From: a virus
Virus record (IMG/VR): IMGVR_UViG_3300045594_000099
Span: 1-64,000 of that record
Direction: 5' to 3' (one strand)
DNA length: 64,000 bases
Part shown: piece by piece, positions 2,727 through 59,338 of the stretch
Layout: each line of letters begins with the position of its first letter
Position numbering within the stretch: position 1 is the stretch's first letter
Program-made: the position numbers and the translations under genes
The notes under the pieces: model-generated
Database searches by the model: none
What the model saw: the letters and a program-made list of their open reading frames with translations, nothing else
What the model was told of the DNA's origin: nothing

Positions 2727-3680
2727 ATGACCGTTAAGTCTCGCTCTAAGAAATTCGAAGTGAATGACTCTCGCTTTCCGAATGAGCATATCAAGAATAG
2801 AAGCAATGTCGTCAATGATTTGACCGCTATTGATGTCAATCTAAGATACATGCCGACATGGGAAGAAGCTAAAGCTTTTCTTCCAGATGCTATCATGTCA
2901 ACATGGGCTGCTAAGTCAGATGAGTATGACTTCACTGAGCATCAGAAAGATGCTCTTATGTATAGAGCACTACGAAAGAAGTTCCTGCCTCAATATCTAG
3001 AATTCGTTAACGTAGTGTTTTCTGTCGATGGAATGACAGCACACGATCTTTCGCACACACTTCGAAACAGGAATGCTTCTTTCGCAGTAGAATGCACAGG
3101 AGACAATTACAAGAATCGCAATGATGTTTCTATGCCAGAAGCCTATAATGAGCTTGGCTTATCGCATGAGTATGAAGCACTTGCTACACTTCAAATGGAT
3201 CTGTATGCTAAAGCAATCAATTCTGGCATGAGCGTGCAAGATGCAAGACTTATCTTGCCAAGAGGCATCCATCAGTTCGTAATGCTTCGTATGACTTTAG
3301 GCAATGCATTGGGGCTGATCACGCAAAGAATTGACACCCAGATCCAGCCGCGTTCAGATAATGTCTTTGCTCTTCAGCTTGCAGTCGCTATGTGCAAGAA
3401 ATGGCCCTTGCTTGCAACTCTTATCGATTTTGATGACACTAACTGGTACTATGTCAAAGAGACTACGACTAATTTTGCTTCTAGATTCTTCAAGCCACTT
3501 CCGCAAAATGACAAGTTTGAGAATGATGACATTGAATTCAAATTCGATGCAGATCCTCTGCATATCCCAGGTCAGAAGACATTCATCAAGTTGCTGAATA
3601 AGTATAAAGATGAATTGCTAGCAATCAGAAAGCAAGCAGAAGCAGATTATCCATGGGTTTTCGATGAGGACTATCGCTGA
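2727..3680 (+). CDS. thyX: Divergent ThyX-like (flavin-dependent thymidylate synthase fold) protein
   Basis: VVFSVDGMTAHDLSHTLRNRNASFAVECTGDNY aligns to the ThyX motif RHRxxSxxxxSxRY with H to N, second S to C and R to G; downstream DARLILPRG...MLRMTLGNALGLITQR resembles the ThyX AR-x-LP / N-x-R block. Confidence 0.6.
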   Translation: MTVKSRSKKFEVNDSRFPNEHIKNRSNVVNDLTAIDVNLRYMPTWEEAKAFLPDAIMSTWAAKSDEYDFTEHQKDALMYRALRKKFLPQYLEFVNVVFSVDGMTAHDLSHTLRNRNASFAVECTGDNYKNRNDVSMPEAYNELGLSHEYEALATLQMDLYAKAINSGMSVQDARLILPRGIHQFVMLRMTLGNALGLITQRIDTQIQPRSDNVFALQLAVAMCKKWPLLATLIDFDDTNWYYVKETTTNFASRFFKPLPQNDKFENDDIEFKFDADPLHIPGQKTFIKLLNKYKDELLAIRKQAEADYPWVFDEDYR

Positions 3681-8279: not shown

Positions 8280-8753
8280 ATGATTCCATACATTGAACTG
8301 ATTGGTCCAGACAGGTCTGGAAAGTCAACTATACTCAATTGTTTCAGAAAACGTCTTGAAAAAGACAAATTCTCTTTTGAGTTCATTCAAGACAGAGGCA
8401 TTGCAGATAGCGTTGTTCTTGATGCTTATTTCAATAGAACTAATGAAGATGTTCTTGATGAAAGACTAGCTTTTCTTGAATCTGCAAAACAGCATTACGA
8501 AATCATCTATGTGCATTCTAGCGCACCAATTCTTCAAAATAGAGTAGATGAAGAATTTGACAAAACTGATGCAGAAGACAGTTTCATGAATAAAGTCAAA
8601 GTTGATTCTAGCAAGCAATTAGAGCTTTACGACTTCTATTATGGCGTGTTCAAGTCTTTCATGCCATTTGTTTTTGAATATGATACTTCTTTGCATTCTA
8701 CCGATTTCATTGTAGACGAATTGCTTAAGAATAGAAAAGAAAGGGATTTGTAG
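8280..8753 (+). CDS. Deoxynucleoside monophosphate kinase (thymidylate-kinase-like P-loop)
   Basis: IELIGPDRSGKSTIL Walker A near N-terminus; QDRGIADSVV resembles the Tmk DR..S motif; 157 aa. Confidence 0.6.
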   Translation: MIPYIELIGPDRSGKSTILNCFRKRLEKDKFSFEFIQDRGIADSVVLDAYFNRTNEDVLDERLAFLESAKQHYEIIYVHSSAPILQNRVDEEFDKTDAEDSFMNKVKVDSSKQLELYDFYYGVFKSFMPFVFEYDTSLHSTDFIVDELLKNRKERDL

Positions 8754-17150: not shown

Positions 17151-17224
17151 GCCTTTGTAATTCAACTGGATAGAATGCCCGTCTTCTAAACGGGATGTTG
17201 CGAGTCCGAGTCTCGCCAAAGGCA
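17151..17224 (+). tRNA. tRNA-Arg (anticodon UCU)
   Basis: Cloverleaf by hand: acceptor GCCTTTG/CAAAGGC, D stem ATTC/GAAT, anticodon stem CCCGT/ACGGG with loop CTTCTAA, T stem GCGAG/CTCGC with loop TCCGAGT, discriminator A; 74 nt. Confidence 0.85.
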
Positions 17225-17322
17225 CGCACAAAAAATGTAGAAAGGTGATTATGTAATGCTGGTAGTTTAACTCTCTTTTCTACCAGCACATACCAATATA
17301 TGCTGTTAGCTCAGAAGGTTAG

Positions 17323-22090: not shown

Positions 22091-22522
22091 TTGAGTAAGA
22101 ACAACAAAGACTTTCTAAGTAAGAAAGCTTCGCAATTTGATTGGGAAGATGTCCTCAATTCGCAAATGGCATTGCAATCTGCTTATCGTGTAGATTTGAA
22201 TGCTAAAGGCAAAGACAAATGCCGTCTGATAAAAGACATGGCTTTCTCATGCGAATCAGAACTTCATGAAATGTTGCAATGCGTTTCATGGAGAGACTGG
22301 TCTGATAGCGATGACATAGATGAAGATGGCGTAAAAGAAGAATTACGAGACTCTTTCCAATTCTTTGTCAACCTTATGCTCATAATGAAAATGTCGCCTG
22401 AAGAGCTATTTGAAAGAATCAAGTCCAAGCAGAATAAGAATTGGGACAGAATTTCTTCTAATTACAGTGAGCATATCAATTCTAAGGATTCTGATGGATC
22501 AGACTATAGTAATGCAATCTGA
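22091..22522 (+). CDS. All-alpha NTP pyrophosphohydrolase (dimeric dUTPase / MazG-like)
   Basis: aaagga-6 nt-TTG start; CESELHEMLQCVSWRDW...EELRDSFQFFVNLML matches the E..E...wK.W....EL.D..fF pattern of dUTPase_2/MazG folds. Confidence 0.45.
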   Translation: MSKNNKDFLSKKASQFDWEDVLNSQMALQSAYRVDLNAKGKDKCRLIKDMAFSCESELHEMLQCVSWRDWSDSDDIDEDGVKEELRDSFQFFVNLMLIMKMSPEELFERIKSKQNKNWDRISSNYSEHINSKDSDGSDYSNAI

Positions 22523-29147: not shown

Positions 29148-29172
29148 TAGTTTTATATTATATCATCTGTAT

Positions 29173-29201
29173 TTTACAAACTTTATCAAATGGTATATAA
29201 T
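29173..29201 (+). promoter_or_regulatory. Conserved cassette promoter (TTTACA-17-TATAAT)
   Basis: gtATTTTACAaactttatcaaatggTATATAATATAA. Confidence 0.75.
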
Positions 29202-29240: not shown

Positions 29241-29873
29241 ATGAAAACAGCTATCGTACCAAGGCATCCGTTTACAGAGGTTTCTAGCAGCAGTATAAAA
29301 GCTTGGGTATCAGAAGCTTCTAAAGAAGATGTTCTTCAAGAAGTTTCAGAATACAATGACAATCTAGAAAAATTCGAAAAAGCGGTAGTTAAAGCTGATA
29401 GAAGCGATGCTTCTGTAAAGACATACTCTGATGCATATGTTCATGCATCTAAGCTTGCAGCATATTTCAATGCTGCATTGGACAAAATCAAGAATATCGC
29501 TATTCAAATTGGCACTTTTGAATCTGATGAATATAGTCTGAAATTCTCAGTCGAAGGTGGCAAAGAAAAAGCTAGAGAGTATGATCTAGATGCTCTTAAG
29601 AAAGACCATCTAGATGTATACAGAAAAGTCACATTCAAGAATGGCAAGCCAATGCTTAAAGCAGATCGCAAAAAGCTTGATGATGAAGCTGACAGATTGA
29701 AGGCAGAGCTTCAAGAAGTCAATAAGAAGCTTATTGAGGACAATGCCAACAAGCAAGTCTATGTGAATGAGCAACTTTTTGACAATGCTGTAGAATCTGA
29801 TCCGGATATTGCTAATTACAGGACAATCAAGTACGGATCTAAGCGTTTCCAGGTTCGAGAGCTTAAGGATTGA
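29241..29873 (+). CDS. Hypothetical coiled-coil protein
   Basis: ATG 29241 (MKTAIV) after aaaggaaaagca; tracked start 29190 lies inside the promoter. Confidence 0.55.
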   Translation: MKTAIVPRHPFTEVSSSSIKAWVSEASKEDVLQEVSEYNDNLEKFEKAVVKADRSDASVKTYSDAYVHASKLAAYFNAALDKIKNIAIQIGTFESDEYSLKFSVEGGKEKAREYDLDALKKDHLDVYRKVTFKNGKPMLKADRKKLDDEADRLKAELQEVNKKLIEDNANKQVYVNEQLFDNAVESDPDIANYRTIKYGSKRFQVRELKD

Positions 29874-29876
29874 GTC

Positions 29877-30425
29877 TTGCTTCTGTCAGATACTTCTATC
29901 AAAAGAATCAATGCTATTGAGCCATTCAATGAAGACAATTTGCAAGCAGCGTCATATGATTTGACATTAAGCGACGTATTCATTGTTACAGATGCAGAAA
30001 TATTATGTCCTGGAGATGCAAGTCTTACAAGGAAATGCTATTCTACTAAATTAGTAACGCATCAGTACAAGCTCATGCCAAACGAATTCATCTTGTCATC
30101 TACTATTGAGAAAGTAAGCATTCCCAATAACATCGGAGCAAGATTCGAAGGCAAATCGTCTCTTGGCCGCATCGGCCTAGCTACGCATATAACTGCTGGC
30201 TTCATTGACCCTGGCTTTGAAGGCAATATCACTCTTGAGATAAAGAATGAAGCATCGTATCCAATACTTCTCACTTGTGGGATGAAGATAGGACAGATAT
30301 GCTTCTACTATATGGATGAAGCTAGTTCTGAACCGTATGGAAGCACTAGCAAGTCGCATTATCAAAATCAGTTTTCAGCAACTAGTTCGTGGTACGTATC
30401 TAGTTTTACAAAGCAGCATAAGTAA
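29877..30425 (+). CDS. dcd: dCTP deaminase (Dcd family)
   Basis: MLLSDTSIKR..IEPFNEDNLQAASYDLTL; EGKSSLGRIGLATHITAGFIDPGFEGNITLEIKN. Confidence 0.9.
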   Translation: MLLSDTSIKRINAIEPFNEDNLQAASYDLTLSDVFIVTDAEILCPGDASLTRKCYSTKLVTHQYKLMPNEFILSSTIEKVSIPNNIGARFEGKSSLGRIGLATHITAGFIDPGFEGNITLEIKNEASYPILLTCGMKIGQICFYYMDEASSEPYGSTSKSHYQNQFSATSSWYVSSFTKQHK

Positions 30426-30470
30426 TATATAATTATATTAAATAGTTTTATTATGAATATGGAGAATAAT

Positions 30471-30944
30471 ATGAAGGTCTCAGAGGAATTCAGACAAGCT
30501 ATTGATAAGCCAGAAGGCAATATCAGAGTATATTTTGCTAATTCGTGGTTCAATGAAAATAAAGCAAAAGCTTCTGATTTAGGTTTCGATGTTCTAAAGA
30601 AGTTCGATGTGGAAGTATTCAATCCGCGTTTTGATTCTCCACAAATTGGAAAGAATCCAACAGAAGCTGAACGACAAGCTAATTTCGATGCAAATCTTTC
30701 TGCTATGCGAAGTTCAGATGTTCTTATCGCTTCTACAGAAGGACTTGATTCTGGCACTATCTGGGAATGCGGCTATGGTTCTGCTTTAGGAATTCCAACA
30801 TTTGGTTTTGCACCATTGCTTCCAGAAGGTGTGCCATTCAATCTAATGCTTGCACAATCTATGAAGCATATCTTCCTTTCAAGCGAAGCTCTTGCTTCTT
30901 ATCTTAAAGATGGCAAAGAGCCTGACAGGATTGGTGCTTGCTAA
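30471..30944 (+). CDS. Nucleoside 2-deoxyribosyltransferase-family protein (NDT / Rcl-like)
   Basis: RVYFANSWFNENKA (Y.AG..F motif) and LDSGTIWECGYGSALGIPTFGF (D.GT..E.G.A); start at ATG 30471 after ggagaataat, tracked ORF opens at 30453. Confidence 0.75.
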   Translation: MKVSEEFRQAIDKPEGNIRVYFANSWFNENKAKASDLGFDVLKKFDVEVFNPRFDSPQIGKNPTEAERQANFDANLSAMRSSDVLIASTEGLDSGTIWECGYGSALGIPTFGFAPLLPEGVPFNLMLAQSMKHIFLSSEALASYLKDGKEPDRIGAC

Positions 30945-31483
30945 TGTTGACTGATGAAGACATTGTAGATTCAGTAATCGATGCTGCGAATGAGATTAGT
31001 GGACAAGCTTATGTAGTCAGATACAATGGAAAGCCAACTTTGCATAGGCAGAATCTTTATGAGCATCATGGATCTGTAGCTCAGTTGCTGCTGTTGCTAT
31101 TCAAAGTCTATGATGTTCCAGAATTCGAGCAATTGAATGCTTTGAAACGTGCTTTGACGCATGATTTGCCAGAGATATGGCTTGCTGACATCCCATTCAA
31201 CACTCATGTAGACAATCCGCATTTTTCTGAAGCATATGACTATTCTGAGCAGAAGATACTGAATAGCAAGCTAGAAAAGTTCGACTATTCAGTATCCAAG
31301 TATGGCAGAGTGTGGCATTTAGTGAAAGCAGCAGATTGCTTAGATGTAGTCCTGTTCTGCAAGCAAGAGTTCAATCTTGGCAACAAGTCAGATACAGTCA
31401 TGTCTATGTATAAGCAGGATGTAGAGCTAGCTGCAAAGCATTTAAGAGAATTGGATAGCAATTATGCAAGATTTGAAAAGTAA
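30938..31483 (+). CDS. HD-domain 5'-deoxynucleotidase (YfbR-like)
   Basis: RQNLYEHHGSVAQLLLLL ... ALKRALTHDLPEIWLADIP parallels YfbR E-H-s..vA ... HDasE..tGDlP. Confidence 0.7.
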   Translation: MLMLTDEDIVDSVIDAANEISGQAYVVRYNGKPTLHRQNLYEHHGSVAQLLLLLFKVYDVPEFEQLNALKRALTHDLPEIWLADIPFNTHVDNPHFSEAYDYSEQKILNSKLEKFDYSVSKYGRVWHLVKAADCLDVVLFCKQEFNLGNKSDTVMSMYKQDVELAAKHLRELDSNYARFEK

Positions 31484-31925
31484 ACTTCAGTTCAACAAGC
31501 AAGTGCTAGACGCTAAAGCATCTCAGATCGATGAGATGGTAGAGTCTGTAATAAAAGACGTCAATGACGGAAAGAGCTTCAAAGATGCGTCTAATCAATA
31601 TGGCAAGTCACCATACAATGTAAGACGATTCGTAAAAGCGTATCTTTTCAAGCATGATCTGTCTGCTAATGACATCTTCAAAGACAATAAGAAGAGCATT
31701 GGCGGCAAGTACCATAAAGAAGACATGCAAGAGCTTATCGACAAGGTTTCAGAAATCGCTGAATTCATAAAAGAAGGCCATACTATTGCAGATGCTAGCA
31801 AAGCGTTCAATGTGTCTGCTGTCACTATCTACAAGTATCTGACCATTCTGCTTTATGTCGATCCTGTCGCTGGAGCAGAGTACAGGACTATGACAGACTC
31901 GCATAGATTCGGCATCAGAAAATGA
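31464..31925 (+). CDS. Tandem helix-turn-helix DNA-binding protein (possible small terminase or regulator)
   Basis: Two similar HTH units: GKSFKDASNQYGKSPYNVRRFVKAY and GHTIADASKAFNVSAVTIYKYL; lies 0.8 kb upstream of the terminase ATPase gene. Confidence 0.35.
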   Translation: MQDLKSKLQFNKQVLDAKASQIDEMVESVIKDVNDGKSFKDASNQYGKSPYNVRRFVKAYLFKHDLSANDIFKDNKKSIGGKYHKEDMQELIDKVSEIAEFIKEGHTIADASKAFNVSAVTIYKYLTILLYVDPVAGAEYRTMTDSHRFGIRK

Positions 31926-32525: not shown

Positions 32526-32737
32526 TGCTTGTAGAGATTGGCGACATGAAACTTACTCCGAAATTCCAGTGCTTTGATTCGTATGGCCCATTCGTTCTGA
32601 AAAGAGATGCTATAGAGGCATGCGCCAATCTTACTTCTGATTTAGCTGTGGCGTATGAGCAATTGCAAGCATACAAGTTGCAGAATGACATTCTTGTTGC
32701 TAGGCTTTCACGTTTAGAAAGAAATATGAATCTATGA
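32525..32737 (+). CDS. Hypothetical small protein (GTG start)
   Basis: 70-aa ORF filling the gap to the terminase gene; overlaps it by ATGA. Confidence 0.45.
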   Translation: MLVEIGDMKLTPKFQCFDSYGPFVLKRDAIEACANLTSDLAVAYEQLQAYKLQNDILVARLSRLERNMNL

Positions 32738-34341
32738 AAAGCAAGATGCTTGATTCTTTACTGAATGCTGTCACACCAGAATCTATAATAGCTAACTCGT
32801 TCAAGAGAAGCACTTCTCCATGGAATGACGACCCTATGGAGTTCTTCGAATCAGACAAGTTCTGCAATATGAAGCTGTATCCTAGACAGAGACTGATGCT
32901 TAAGCTATGGAATCTGCAATTAGATGACCTGTCTGATTATGAGAAGAAGACTCTTGACTCATGGAGAGCTTCTTTCTCAAATGATCAGTATACGATAGGC
33001 GTCAATGAGGACATATATGAAAGAATAGCCATTCTGAAGAAGAACGGCTACTTGTGGTTCAATACGATCATTCCGATTCTTGGAAGACGAGCATCCAAGA
33101 CTATGATGTCTGGTGCTCAGCTATGCCTTCAAGATGCTACTTTGATGTGGGATGGCATACCATCTGTCACTGTAGATGATGCTGGCGAGGGTGAAGACAA
33201 AGATGACTCTACATATTCGTTTGTAATTGCTAAGACGCAAGGCCAGGCTAAAGAGACTACGTTCGCAGCTCACTATAATGCAGTAATGCATTGCAAATGG
33301 CTAAAGCAATACATTGAAAGAGCTACTCCGTTCGAGATAAGATTTCAGACGTTCGATGACAGAATGCAATCTATCGATCTAGTAAGTCAGGGAATGCCGC
33401 TTGAAAAGCCAATCTCATCATTTGTAGCAAGGCCTGTGTCATCCGATTCCGATTCTATACGTGGTAGAGCTTGCGTATCTCCAGATTCGTATGTGCTTGA
33501 CTATCAAAGACATTGGGTTCAGCTTAGCACTATTCATCCTGGAAGCAGAATACTTGCTTTTCATGAGCATGAACCGTATTCATTGACAGAAGCTGTAGTT
33601 CTGAACATGTGGAAGACGAAGAAGGAATGCGTAAGACTGCATGTCTCTAAGAATGTCAATATGCCGTTAGTCTGCTCCATAGACCATAAGGTTCAGATGA
33701 ACGACTGGTCTTGGAAAGAAGCAGGAGCTCTGTCTAAAGGTGACATAGTTCGTACAGCTGACAGCACTAAGACTGTTCTTGAAGTCGAACATGTCGGAGA
33801 GCAAGATCTGATAGACATGACTACTTCTTCGCATACGTATCTTGCTAACAACATTCGATCTCACAACTGCGTATCGCTTGCTTATGACGAGATCTTCTTT
33901 GCTAATGCTGGGCAGTCGTCAAGATCTGGCGACAGAGGCGTCAAAGCAATGCAGCCAGCTTTGCAGCAGTTCGGCAAATACAAGCTGATGCTTTTCCCAT
34001 CTTCTCCATGGACTAGAAATGGAGTAGTGTACGACAAGTACTTGCAAGGTAGAGAGCATGTCAAAGAGTACATTGAGAAATACGGTCTATCAAGCAAAGA
34101 GAAAGATGCTCTAGACAAAGACATTGAGCATACTAAGAAAGCTATCATAACAGATCCCACTATTTTTGTTGCTCAGTTAGAGTCTTGGAATCTTTATGAA
34201 GACTTCGACAGTCAAGCATATGTTCCGACATACTATTCTGGCTTCAAAGCGAAGAAGCTTGTCATAGATGACAATGGCCATAAGACTGAAATAGTCGCCG
34301 ATACTAATGCTGTTGAAGGAGATTATGTCTATGTAGAATGA
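32734..34341 (+). CDS. Terminase large subunit, ATPase half only, interrupted by a mini-intein
   Basis: Walker A-like ILGRRASKTMMSG; SIRGRA/(intein)/CVSLAYDEIFF (Walker B); FPSSPW; ends soon after ESWNLYED with no nuclease domain. Confidence 0.8.
   Translation: MKSKMLDSLLNAVTPESIIANSFKRSTSPWNDDPMEFFESDKFCNMKLYPRQRLMLKLWNLQLDDLSDYEKKTLDSWRASFSNDQYTIGVNEDIYERIAILKKNGYLWFNTIIPILGRRASKTMMSGAQLCLQDATLMWDGIPSVTVDDAGEGEDKDDSTYSFVIAKTQGQAKETTFAAHYNAVMHCKWLKQYIERATPFEIRFQTFDDRMQSIDLVSQGMPLEKPISSFVARPVSSDSDSIRGRACVSPDSYVLDYQRHWVQLSTIHPGSRILAFHEHEPYSLTEAVVLNMWKTKKECVRLHVSKNVNMPLVCSIDHKVQMNDWSWKEAGALSKGDIVRTADSTKTVLEVEHVGEQDLIDMTTSSHTYLANNIRSHNCVSLAYDEIFFANAGQSSRSGDRGVKAMQPALQQFGKYKLMLFPSSPWTRNGVVYDKYLQGREHVKEYIEKYGLSSKEKDALDKDIEHTKKAIITDPTIFVAQLESWNLYEDFDSQAYVPTYYSGFKAKKLVIDDNGHKTEIVADTNAVEGDYVYVE
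33472..33867 (+). mobile_element. 132-aa mini-intein (no endonuclease domain) in the terminase ATPase just before Walker B
   Basis: Cys1 CVSPDSYVL (33472); block B SIDHK; block F/G DLIDMTTSSHTYLANNIRSHN followed by Cys+1 (33868). Confidence 0.8.
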
Positions 34342-49312: not shown

Positions 49313-49483
49313 ATGGTTGCGCTTGTCAAGCCAAATGATGTAGACAACAAAGAATTCGACTTCAAGACTAGCTACAAAAGGGACTGGTATGATGCAGACC
49401 AAGTAGATGACTTTCTAGATGATGTGCATGACACTATACTGGAGCTAGCTAAAGACAACATACGATTGAGAAAGAGACTTTGA
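49313..49483 (+). CDS. DivIVA-domain small protein (56 aa)
   Basis: FDFKTSYKRDWYDADQVDDFLDDVHDTILELAKDNIRLRKRL fits the DivIVA N-terminal pattern F....rGY....VD.FLd.v....l..eN..L. Confidence 0.55.
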   Translation: MVALVKPNDVDNKEFDFKTSYKRDWYDADQVDDFLDDVHDTILELAKDNIRLRKRL

Positions 49484-49488
49484 ATAGA

Positions 49489-49920
49489 ATGACTGAATAT
49501 ATGAGACTATCAGATGTTGCTCAAGAACCGACTAGAAAGCATGCATTTGATGCTGGCTCTGATCTGCATTCTTCTGAAGACACGACAATCGAACCTGGAC
49601 AGTACAAGCTTGTGCATACAGGCATTGCTATTAGACTAGACAAGAACAAAGTAGCAATGGTAGTTCCACGATCTGGTCTAGCTATCCATAATGGAATCAC
49701 AGTCATGAATTCTCCAGGAATTGTAGACTCTGGATACAGAGGAGAGATTCTAGTCAATCTTGTCAATCACAGCGACAAAGTATTCGAAATCAAGACTGGT
49801 GACAGAATCGCTCAGCTTCTTGTCATGTCTGTAGACTTGTCAAATTGGGAAGAAACAGAAAGCCTGGGCAAGTCTGAAGATGGAAGAGATGAATCTGGCT
49901 TCGGATCTACAGGAGTCTGA
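49489..49920 (+). CDS. dut: Trimeric dUTPase
   Basis: All five motifs: DAGSDL, PRSG, GIVDSGYRGEI, GDRIAQLL, RDESGFGSTG. Confidence 0.93.
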   Translation: MTEYMRLSDVAQEPTRKHAFDAGSDLHSSEDTTIEPGQYKLVHTGIAIRLDKNKVAMVVPRSGLAIHNGITVMNSPGIVDSGYRGEILVNLVNHSDKVFEIKTGDRIAQLLVMSVDLSNWEETESLGKSEDGRDESGFGSTGV

Positions 49921-58936: not shown

Positions 58937-59338
58937 TCATACATGCATGATGCAAGCATTGCCATGCCAGTCTGTATACACTGCATTCTTTACGTTAGCT
59001 GCTTTCATCAGCTTCTGGCATCTCTTGCATGGCTTAGACATCGTGGCCGTGCCGTCAGAATAGACTCTAGCTACGTAGACAGTAGAATTGCCAGCATCAC
59101 CTCTGCATGCCTTCAAAGCTTGCTCTTCAGCATGGACAGATATGCCTGATGGTCTGTCTAGCATGTATGCAGGATTGTTTCGCATCTTGTTGATTCCTAC
59201 AGACAGAACATTGTTGCTTCTTACGACTAAAGCACCATGTTTCTTCTTGCATGAACTGAGCTTAGCTAGTTCTGTAGCTATGTCAAGCCAATGCTGATGT
59301 CTTGCTGATATCATGTCTTTCATAGCTTTCAGAACCAT
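58937..59338 (-). CDS. dCMP (deoxycytidylate) / cytidine deaminase family zinc enzyme
   Basis: VHAEEQAL (HAE) and SKPCKRCQKLM (PCxxC); the only convincing minus-strand gene in the window. Confidence 0.85.
   Translation of the reverse strand: MVLKAMKDMISARHQHWLDIATELAKLSSCKKKHGALVVRSNNVLSVGINKMRNNPAYMLDRPSGISVHAEEQALKACRGDAGNSTVYVARVYSDGTATMSKPCKRCQKLMKAANVKNAVYTDWHGNACIMHV

Follow-up and report, generated by a model that had tools for sequence, protein, structure and literature searches.

A recurrent phage gene pair encoding a nucleoside 2'-deoxyribosyltransferase and an HD 5'-deoxynucleotidase, its ThyX-like partner, and a possible role in a thymidylate-analogue pathway

The DNA analysed here, positions 1 to 64,000 of IMG/VR virus record IMGVR_UViG_3300045594_000099 (hereafter the window), makes up the first 64 kb of one phage contig of 102,656 bp, i.e. 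of a genome of about 102.5 kb. The study concerns three genes of this phage, encoding a dCTP deaminase (Dcd), a nucleoside 2'-deoxyribosyltransferase-family enzyme (NDT) and a YfbR-like HD 5'-deoxynucleotidase (HD), and the genes with which they are associated in other phages. In a sequence-only reading they had been described as a nucleotide-pool editing triad lying in one operon. All three open reading frames (ORFs) proved to be present and intact on the + strand, the three domain calls are borne out by Pfam matches far above chance, and nucleotide-pool editing as a general theme holds with them. Comparison with other phages showed that the triad is one local version of a recurrent gene order, in which a dUMP-forming enzyme is followed by NDT and HD, and that the tightest partners of the NDT-HD pair are a ThyX-like enzyme and a small P-loop kinase-like protein.

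Dcd is encoded at positions 29877-30425 (+ strand), where a TTG start codon gives the canonical MLLSD N-terminus. The protein matched the Pfam family DCD (PF22769) with an E-value of 1.8e-36 (126 bits, cut-off 27) and the NCBIfam equivalog TIGR02274 with 145.2 bits (cut-off 92.8). Its best solved relatives are the Dcd:dut of M. tuberculosis (2qxx, 1.8e-35) and the DCD-DUT of M. jannaschii (1ogh), and the top three distinct solved proteins, from M. tuberculosis, M. jannaschii and B. halodurans, all outscored E. coli Dcd (1xs1). The B. halodurans enzyme is bifunctional. The Dcd enzymes of M. tuberculosis and M. jannaschii have been reported to be bifunctional as well, and such enzymes set the dCTP:dTTP balance (PMC5519681). 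Active-site motifs and C-terminal lid of these enzymes are conserved in the window protein, with KSSLGR, TAGFIDPGF, ITLE and the PYGS...YQ of the lid aligning identically with 2qxx; however, the identity reaches about 45% at best, and the window phage additionally encodes two separate dUTPases. Judged by the ranking of its solved relatives, the window Dcd is probably of the dUMP-forming bifunctional type, and would then both drain dCTP and feed dUMP.

The NDT gene (30453-30944, + strand) has its likelier start at ATG 30471, which is preceded by GGAGA. A match to PF05014 was obtained with 60.6 bits (E-value 2e-16, cut-off 28.8). In an alignment of 19 family members that are 28-87% identical to the window protein (alignment A1), residues Y27, D99, E105 and N130 are invariant and N81 is nearly so; compared with solved NDTs, they correspond to Y7, D92, E98, N123 and D72, respectively, of L. 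leichmannii NDT (LlNDT). In LlNDT, E98 becomes covalently linked to the deoxyribosyl group in the reaction intermediate, D92 binds the 5'-OH, and D72 is in contact with the pyrimidine O2 or purine N3 (PMC11647913, PMC11368039). The catalytic Glu and the tuning Tyr are found in all 19 sequences as E105 and Y27, and the position of Asp72 is occupied by Asn81 in the phage family. A natural Tyr-Asn-Glu triad of this kind occurs in DmtZ and TbPDT; DmtZ, like other hydrolases of dNMPs, does without the Asp and Asn by which the 5'-OH is stabilised (PMC12884076).

The label 'Rcl-like', under which the NDT had first been placed, is not supported by these residues or by the predicted structure. The AlphaFold2 (AF2) model of the protein has a predicted local distance difference test score (pLDDT) of 93, and Foldseek searches with it returned true NDTs at the top (7o62 and 6evs, template modelling score 0.81, normalised to target), DNPH1 from rank 38 onwards and BcmB at rank 44. 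An assignment to the Rcl/DNPH1/MilB-type (d)NMP N-glycosidases was rejected, as D99 and N130 are present without small uncharged substitutes and the fold ranking favours NDTs. Since the residues that bind the 5'-OH are retained, the window enzyme is predicted to be a nucleoside-type NDT, with the natural Tyr-Asn-Glu triad and a nucleoside-type sugar pocket. It shares fold, catalytic Glu and Tyr, and the 5'-OH-holding Asp and Asn with bacterial NDTs (L. leichmannii NDT-2, B. psychrosaccharolyticus 6evs, D. psychrophila 7o62), but differs from them by Asn in place of Asp72, by an identity of only about 26%, and by the signatures D-x-G-T-I-W-E-C-G-Y and F-N-L-M-L of the phage family. The C-termini within alignment A1 are also conserved, ending in R-I/V-G-A-C in the group of the window and in a terminal Glu in a distant group. 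They recall the C-terminal carboxylate of L. leichmannii NDT, which completes the neighbouring active site. The family is almost confined to phage contigs: only eight matches, all on contigs of metagenome-assembled genomes (MAGs), were obtained in 185,579 species genomes.

HD is encoded at 30944-31483 (+ strand; alternative TTG start at 30938) and matched the YfbR-like family PF12917 with 52 bits (E-value 9e-14, cut-off 25.9). Residues R26, H41, H73, D74, E77, D82 and D131 are invariant among 15-17 family members, and the family profile alignment sets them opposite R18, H33, H68, D69, E72, D77 and D137 of YfbR. The H...HD...D metal site, the catalytic Glu, the Arg and the deoxyribose-sensing Asp of YfbR-like enzymes are all found. 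With the family profile, YfbR (2paq) was reached at an E-value of 1.5e-17 and DatZ more weakly, at 4e-11; the AF2 model has a pLDDT of 89, with YfbR, OxsA and DatZ as top Foldseek matches. All seven equivalents of the metal- and substrate-binding residues of E. coli YfbR (2paq, 2par) are thus invariant in the phage protein, which nevertheless differs from YfbR in having Tyr for W19, in scoring below the cut-off of the YfbR equivalog NF003009 (23.8 versus 122 bits), and in being phage-borne and gene-coupled to NDT. The positions of W20 and I22 of DatZ are occupied by Tyr27 and Gly29. The base preference of HD and NDT is not readable from sequence.

The NDT and HD genes meet in the junction TAATG, in which the stop TAA of NDT (30942-30944) shares its A with the ATG at 30944. 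The overlap noted earlier between the last two genes is confirmed by this, and NDT and HD are, to judge from the overlapping stop and start codons, translationally coupled. For transcription, a phage promoter motif TTTTACW-N17-TATAAT was found in 16 copies in the window (positions 128-59625, 15 of them on the + strand) and in none of 100 shuffles. Copies of the motif mark out cassettes across the early and middle region of the window. One copy, TTTTACA-N17-TATAAT at 29172-29201 (+ strand), which was also picked up by a promoter scan with 11 of 12 matches, is located 5' of ORF 29241-29873 and Dcd; a second one at 30404-30433 (+ strand) lies within the last Dcd codons, 20-38 nt 5' of the NDT start, and is conserved in relatives with NDT identities of 100% and 86%. 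Because the motif stands ahead of ORF 29241 and again ahead of NDT, the locus would consist of two adjacent promoter-defined cassettes, the first with this ORF and Dcd and the second with NDT, HD and a helix-turn-helix (HTH) protein onward. A single Dcd-NDT-HD operon is not demonstrated, as the motif at 30404-30433 intervenes and the adjacency of the three genes is not conserved. No terminator-like site was found between the three genes, so that read-through from Dcd into NDT is possible. ORF 29241-29873 (+ strand) is a viral ORF without assigned family, whose stop TGA (29871-29873) is coupled to the Dcd start at 29877. No family was found for it in Pfam, PHROG or NCBIfam, and the protein atlas returned viral hypothetical clusters only; the idea of a hidden enzyme was rejected on these family searches.

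For the synteny analysis, 80 IMG/VR loci were collected with the NDT profile out of at least 219 relatives, and dereplication at 80% NDT identity reduced them to 23 lineages. In 69 of the 80 loci and 20 of the 23 lineages, a ThyX-like gene is no more than 6 kb away from NDT. HD comes after NDT in 24 loci and directly after it in 14 lineages, and an all-alpha dUTPase is nearby in 42 loci, homologues being located at most 6 kb from NDT in nine lineages. Dcd, by contrast to its place in the proposed triad, was present in eight loci, all of the window phage's own lineage, and adjoins NDT solely in the closest relatives. Relatives with 48% NDT identity carry Dcd 3.3-5.4 kb 5' with five genes in between, and their ThyX-like gene elsewhere in the genome; a genome-wide search found the latter in all five of the ~100-kb relatives tested. 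Of the triad as a unit, the coupled NDT-HD part can therefore be retained, but not Dcd, which is adjacent to NDT in just one of the 23 lineages.

The same association extends to named phages and to distant contigs. By tblastn, NDT, HD and the ThyX-like enzyme all found their best phage relatives in the record of Geobacillus phage GR1, at most 6 kb apart, and NDT and HD are adjacent in Streptococcus phage GXN1 (vB_SagM-GXN1). All eight MAG contigs carry NDT, HD and the ThyX-like gene; a P-loop gene directly follows the last in five of them, and one of the eight loci has a weak P-loop match 5' of NDT. The whole module is seen in its cleanest natural form in an unrelated IMG/VR phage (L085:5462-11251), where a compact operon with overlapping junctions encodes a trimeric Dut, NDT, HD, the ThyX-like enzyme, the P-loop protein and a family-B DNA polymerase (PolB). 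Trimeric Dut (80 bits) is joined 5' to the module in this locus and in L029. Marine-type loci (L024-L095, e.g. L025:2139-2942 and L026:7453-8553) have the order dUTPase_2-ThyX-like-NDT without HD, with a Fpg/Nei-type DNA glycosylase as neighbour in 25 loci and an NAD-dependent sugar epimerase/dehydratase in 38. In GR1-type loci (L004:9198-11767, L053:8984-11589) a nitroreductase-family flavoprotein is situated between the P-loop gene and the ThyX-like gene, and could be a flavin reductase for the ThyX-like enzyme. HD is followed in these loci by a protein of 451-459 aa, named 'glycosyltransferase' in GenBank and without Pfam match.

HD homologues also stand next to thymidylate-synthase homologues that have the other fold. 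One case is Bordetella phage MW2 (L097:5896-7534), an M6/YuA-like phage whose cluster includes a PF18748 5-hydroxymethyldeoxyuridine (5-hmdU) DNA kinase; its ThyA-family gene for a dUMP hydroxymethylase is overlapped at the end by the HD homologue. In E. coli phage IME392 (L099:1305-3061) an HD homologue lies directly 3' of a divergent ThyA homologue. With the ThyX-like neighbours described above, this indicates that the nucleotidase family was recruited beside C5-modifying enzymes of both folds. These observations bear on a further explanation of the HD gene. Some phages are known to dispose of host nucleotides by means of a 5'-deoxynucleotidase, as T5 does with dmp. HD could likewise dephosphorylate host-DNA-derived dNMPs for disposal, or the NDT-HD pair could serve anti-defence, with no relation to the composition of phage DNA and with Dcd placed there by the usual grouping of nucleotide genes; the lineage-specific adjacency of Dcd would agree with this. 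We regard such a role as very improbable, since NDT, HD, the ThyX-like gene and the kinase gene are linked across very divergent phages, often by overlapping stop and start codons, and thymidylate-synthase homologues of either fold have HD as a partner, which together point to one shared pathway.

In the window phage the divergent ThyX-like enzyme is encoded at 2727-3680 (+ strand). It passes the Pfam Thy1 cut-off (PF02511, 37.9 bits) and falls below that of the ThyX equivalog TIGR02170 (25.9 versus 87.9 bits). The family has RHRxxSFxxxC[TS]GD in place of the canonical RHRxxSxxxxSxRY, with RNR for RHR in the window phage, and keeps both Arg of the ARxILP and xRxD motifs, common to canonical ThyX. 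The gene is the single Thy1 match and the only thymidylate-synthase-family gene in the complete genome, in which no canonical ThyX was found and ThyA (PF00303) gave no match, so that a ThyA-family dUMP hydroxymethylase is missing from it. Other phages combine both types. A complete 42,337-bp genome (L061, G006) encodes a canonical ThyX (131 bits, PF02511) in addition to a ThyX-like-NDT-HD cassette, and canonical ThyX stands beside ThyX-like-NDT in 21 loci of an abundant marine group. This coexistence argues for a role of the ThyX-like protein other than the making of dTMP.

A small P-loop protein (8280-8753, + strand) was recognised in the window phage as a remote Tmk-like family member with a hidden Markov model of the P-loop family that flanks the ThyX-like gene (E-value 4e-8, compared with 1.5e-49 for the GR1 protein). 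It has a weak dTMP-kinase match, and thymidylate-kinase-like motifs could be seen in the family by eye. Further nucleotide-pool genes encode an all-alpha dUTPase_2/MazG-like NTP pyrophosphatase (22091-22522, + strand; PF08761, 5.7e-7), a trimeric dUTPase (49480-49920, + strand; PF00692, 1.4e-30) and a dCMP/cytidine deaminase-family protein (58937-59338, - strand; PF00383, 3.6e-10).

The phage genome is complete and terminally redundant or circularly assembled, because its first 128 bases recur at the 3' end of the contig, and CheckV gave a completeness of 100%. It codes for an NAD ligase, an SNF2-type helicase, a DnaE-type polymerase, DnaB, a primase and a large terminase, and no DNA-level relatives of the window phage were found among 50,697 phage records. 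Within the NDT-HD cassette, the HD gene is overlapped by 20 nt by the gene of the HTH protein (31464-31925, + strand), which has weak HTH_28, HTH_23 and HTH_7 matches and, lying 5' of the large terminase, is possibly the small terminase. The large-terminase ORF (32734-34341) matched a PHROG terminase weakly (1.5e-7) and no Pfam family; a mini-intein-like segment bounded by Cys...Ser-His-Asn/Cys could be seen in it by eye. A tRNA-Arg(TCT) gene at 17151-17225 is the sole tRNA gene in the window.

Taken with these neighbours, NDT and HD may form a shunt that serves a non-canonical thymidylate-analogue pathway, to which Dcd would be an added dUMP supplier; we give this interpretation an even chance. 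HD would remove the 5'-phosphate of a dNMP to yield a deoxynucleoside, which NDT would take up, forming a deoxyribosyl intermediate on Glu105 and freeing the base. The sugar would then be handed to another base or to water, so that the base is either swapped or removed. This two-step order is proposed by analogy with base-replacing phages and from the nucleoside-type pocket of NDT. The rest of the module, i.e. the ThyX-like enzyme, the Tmk-like kinase and a dUMP-forming Dut, all-alpha dUTPase or Dcd, would most likely make a thymidylate analogue from dUMP. The shunt could run in either of two directions. One is the destruction of dTMP or dCMP as a competing canonical pyrimidine nucleotide; the other would funnel the deoxyribose of host-derived dNMPs into deoxyuridine for the ThyX-like enzyme, for which a host kinase would be needed, as the phage lacks a deoxynucleoside kinase. 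Searches of the literature for NDT, ThyX and the modification of phage DNA yielded no experimental characterisation of an NDT-HD-ThyX-like-kinase module. What the analysis shows directly are the identities of the genes, the catalytic residues and folds of their products, the coupling, the promoter motif and the synteny; the substrates, the direction of flux and the modified base itself are inferred.

Precedents for the removal of a canonical nucleotide are available from two groups of phages. In 5-hydroxymethyluracil (hmU) and thymidine-hypermodifying phages (SPO1, SP8, phi-e, PhiW-14, M6 and ViI) a dTTPase and a dTMPase deplete the thymidine nucleotides, a dCMP deaminase supplies dUMP, and a dUMP hydroxymethylase and an own dNMP kinase are encoded (PMC8989533), in agreement with what had been said earlier on thymine-replacing phages. 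The window phage can fill the roles of dUMP suppliers, thymidylate-synthase-family enzyme, nucleotidase and small kinase; in contrast to these phages, its enzyme is of ThyX and not of ThyA fold, an NDT is added, and no 5-hmdU DNA kinase is present. In Z-genome phages, DatZ, a YfbR-like HD dATPase, is found with a dA-preferring NDT, or else the NDT-family enzyme DmtZ, beside DutZ, hydrolyses dAMP and transfers the sugar phosphate (dR5P) to the Z base (bioRxiv 10.1101/2025.10.22.683976; PMC12884076), and HD plus NDT thus have a precedent as a means of removing a canonical nucleotide. An HD phosphohydrolase and an NDT-family enzyme beside a dUTPase-superfamily enzyme, and the Tyr-Asn-Glu triad of DmtZ, are common to both systems. 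The window NDT, however, keeps the 5'-OH-binding Asp and Asn that are absent in DmtZ, and the conserved partner is a pyrimidine enzyme (ThyX-like) instead of a purine enzyme. A Z-genome was rejected for the window phage, as PurZ (PF00709) gave no match in the complete genome and HD has Tyr and Gly for W20 and I22 of DatZ. A further parallel is offered by nucleoside-antibiotic pathways, in which MilA/MilB and BcmA/BcmB combine a thymidylate-synthase-like hydroxymethylase with an NDT-fold N-glycosidase. The pairing of a C5-modifying enzyme of the thymidylate synthase family with an NDT-fold enzyme is the same, but those enzymes act on (d)CMP, are of ThyA fold and release the free base, whereas the phage module has a nucleoside-type NDT and a ThyX fold.

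The strictest form of the shunt would be the exclusion of thymine, for which HD and NDT had been proposed as candidates. HD would then be a dTMPase (or dTTPase), NDT would cleave thymidine against rescue by the host thymidine kinase, and Dcd would supply dUMP for a thymine-replacing base made by the ThyX-like enzyme. The four dUMP-forming or C-draining enzymes of the window phage, its lack of ThyA and canonical ThyX, and the dTMPase and dTTPase of the hmU phages agree with this, as does the position of HD homologues in M6/YuA-like T-hypermodifying phages, immediately after the dUMP hydroxymethylase. For Z-genome phages a like sink for dA has been put forward and in part assayed (bioRxiv 10.1101/2025.10.22.683976), and several glycosyltransferase-like genes of the window phage could decorate a hydroxylated base. 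The proposal is weakened by the canonical ThyX that the complete 42-kb phage and the 21 marine loci carry together with module genes, since exclusion of dTMP is hardly to be expected from a phage that synthesises it. The unreadable base preference of HD and NDT and the absence of a 5-hmdU DNA kinase (PF18748, no match in the window phage) weigh against it too, and on the latter ground a post-replicative 5-hmdU kinase route was rejected. As a sub-case of the shunt, strict exclusion appears rather unlikely.

Plain dTTP supply and salvage, for a genome AT-richer than that of the host, is a serious rival, even if we rate it as rather unlikely. Dcd, Dut and dCMP deaminase would lead to dUMP, the ThyX-like enzyme would be a true synthase followed by the P-loop kinase, HD and NDT would recycle host DNA breakdown products, and no modified base would be made. 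The 41% GC of the phage genome fits this, the order of Dut, NDT, HD, ThyX-like enzyme, kinase and polymerase resembles a dTTP supply line, and a like set of dCMP deaminase, thymidylate synthase and NDT was so read in roseophage R7L (PMC11981692). The ThyX-like protein passes the Thy1 cut-off and keeps several ThyX motifs, but its score on the equivalog is far too low, its SxRY is replaced by the conserved C[TS]GD, and it coexists with canonical ThyX in two lineages. The presence of a dedicated, truncated kinase hints that host Tmk handles the product poorly, and the phage is without a nucleoside kinase to finish the route: a phage-encoded one completing the salvage was looked for, and only a sub-threshold deoxynucleoside kinase match inside the dUTPase_2 ORF was obtained.

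The coexistence with canonical ThyX would fit a cytosine-directed pathway following the logic of T4 with a ThyX fold. The ThyX-like enzyme would convert dCMP to a 5-substituted dCMP, Dcd, dCMP deaminase, HD and NDT would remove dCTP, dCMP and dC, and a Bgt-like transferase would glycosylate the new base. Such a pathway would agree with the Bgt-like GT1-type gene that the window phage has between dnaB and that of the primase, and dCMP is a substrate of E. coli YfbR in vivo. In canonical ThyX the Arg of the xRxD motif contacts the uracil O4. Retention of this Arg in the ThyX-like enzyme favours a uracil substrate, however, the enzymes joined 5' of the module are dUMP-forming (the trimeric Dut of L085 and L029), and the window phage would make much dUMP without a thymidylate synthase of its own. 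Although thymidylate-synthase homologues that make 5-hydroxy-dCMP and 5-hydroxymethyl-dCMP are known (PMC13326640), we consider this pathway improbable.

The thymidylate-analogue shunt has itself to be weighed against a number of findings. The parts of the module are all present in the window phage but scattered over dispersed genes. No HD was found in the large genomes that have ThyX-like-NDT only, so an order of action from HD to NDT is not universal. With RHR (here RNR) and both Arg kept, the ThyX-like enzyme may yet function as a thymidylate synthase. A sink for thymidine nucleotides is at odds with the canonical ThyX that some phages with the module encode, and any salvage route would have to rely on a host kinase, as the phage has no deoxynucleoside kinase. 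Finally, the window derives from an uncultured phage, and the activities of its enzymes and a modified base in its DNA are predictions.

More specifically, the NDT-HD pair, the Cys-motif ThyX-like enzyme and the truncated Tmk-like kinase may belong to an undescribed, widespread pathway that replaces, or partly replaces, thymidine by a 5-substituted deoxyuridine that would be new and that in this phage might be glycosylated, with NDT-HD as the nucleoside-level sink or recycler of the canonical nucleotide; this fuller proposal is put forward tentatively, as a possibility on the doubtful side.

The replacement of bases in phage DNA needs enzymes that rewrite the nucleotide pools, and few such toolkits are known, i.e. 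those of T4 (5-hydroxymethylcytosine), the hmU phages, the Z-genomes and the deazaguanines. The HD-NDT pair belongs to a cassette that recurs, is borne almost exclusively by phages, and is centred on a ThyX-fold enzyme with altered active-site motif and a small kinase of its own, and the NDT-bearing contigs (at least 219 in IMG/VR) come from gut, marine and thermophile phages. Even if it were only a dTTP supply line, the Dcd-NDT-HD triad is not the conserved unit. If the fuller proposal is right, the pathway would be the pyrimidine counterpart of DatZ/DmtZ and the first entry of the ThyX fold into DNA hypermodification. Should a new base be made, ThyA-fold and ThyX-fold enzymes would have independently recruited one nucleotidase partner, new nucleoside-modifying and base-swapping enzymes would become available for biocatalysis, and restriction evasion in a large group of uncultured gut, marine and thermophile phages would be opened to study.

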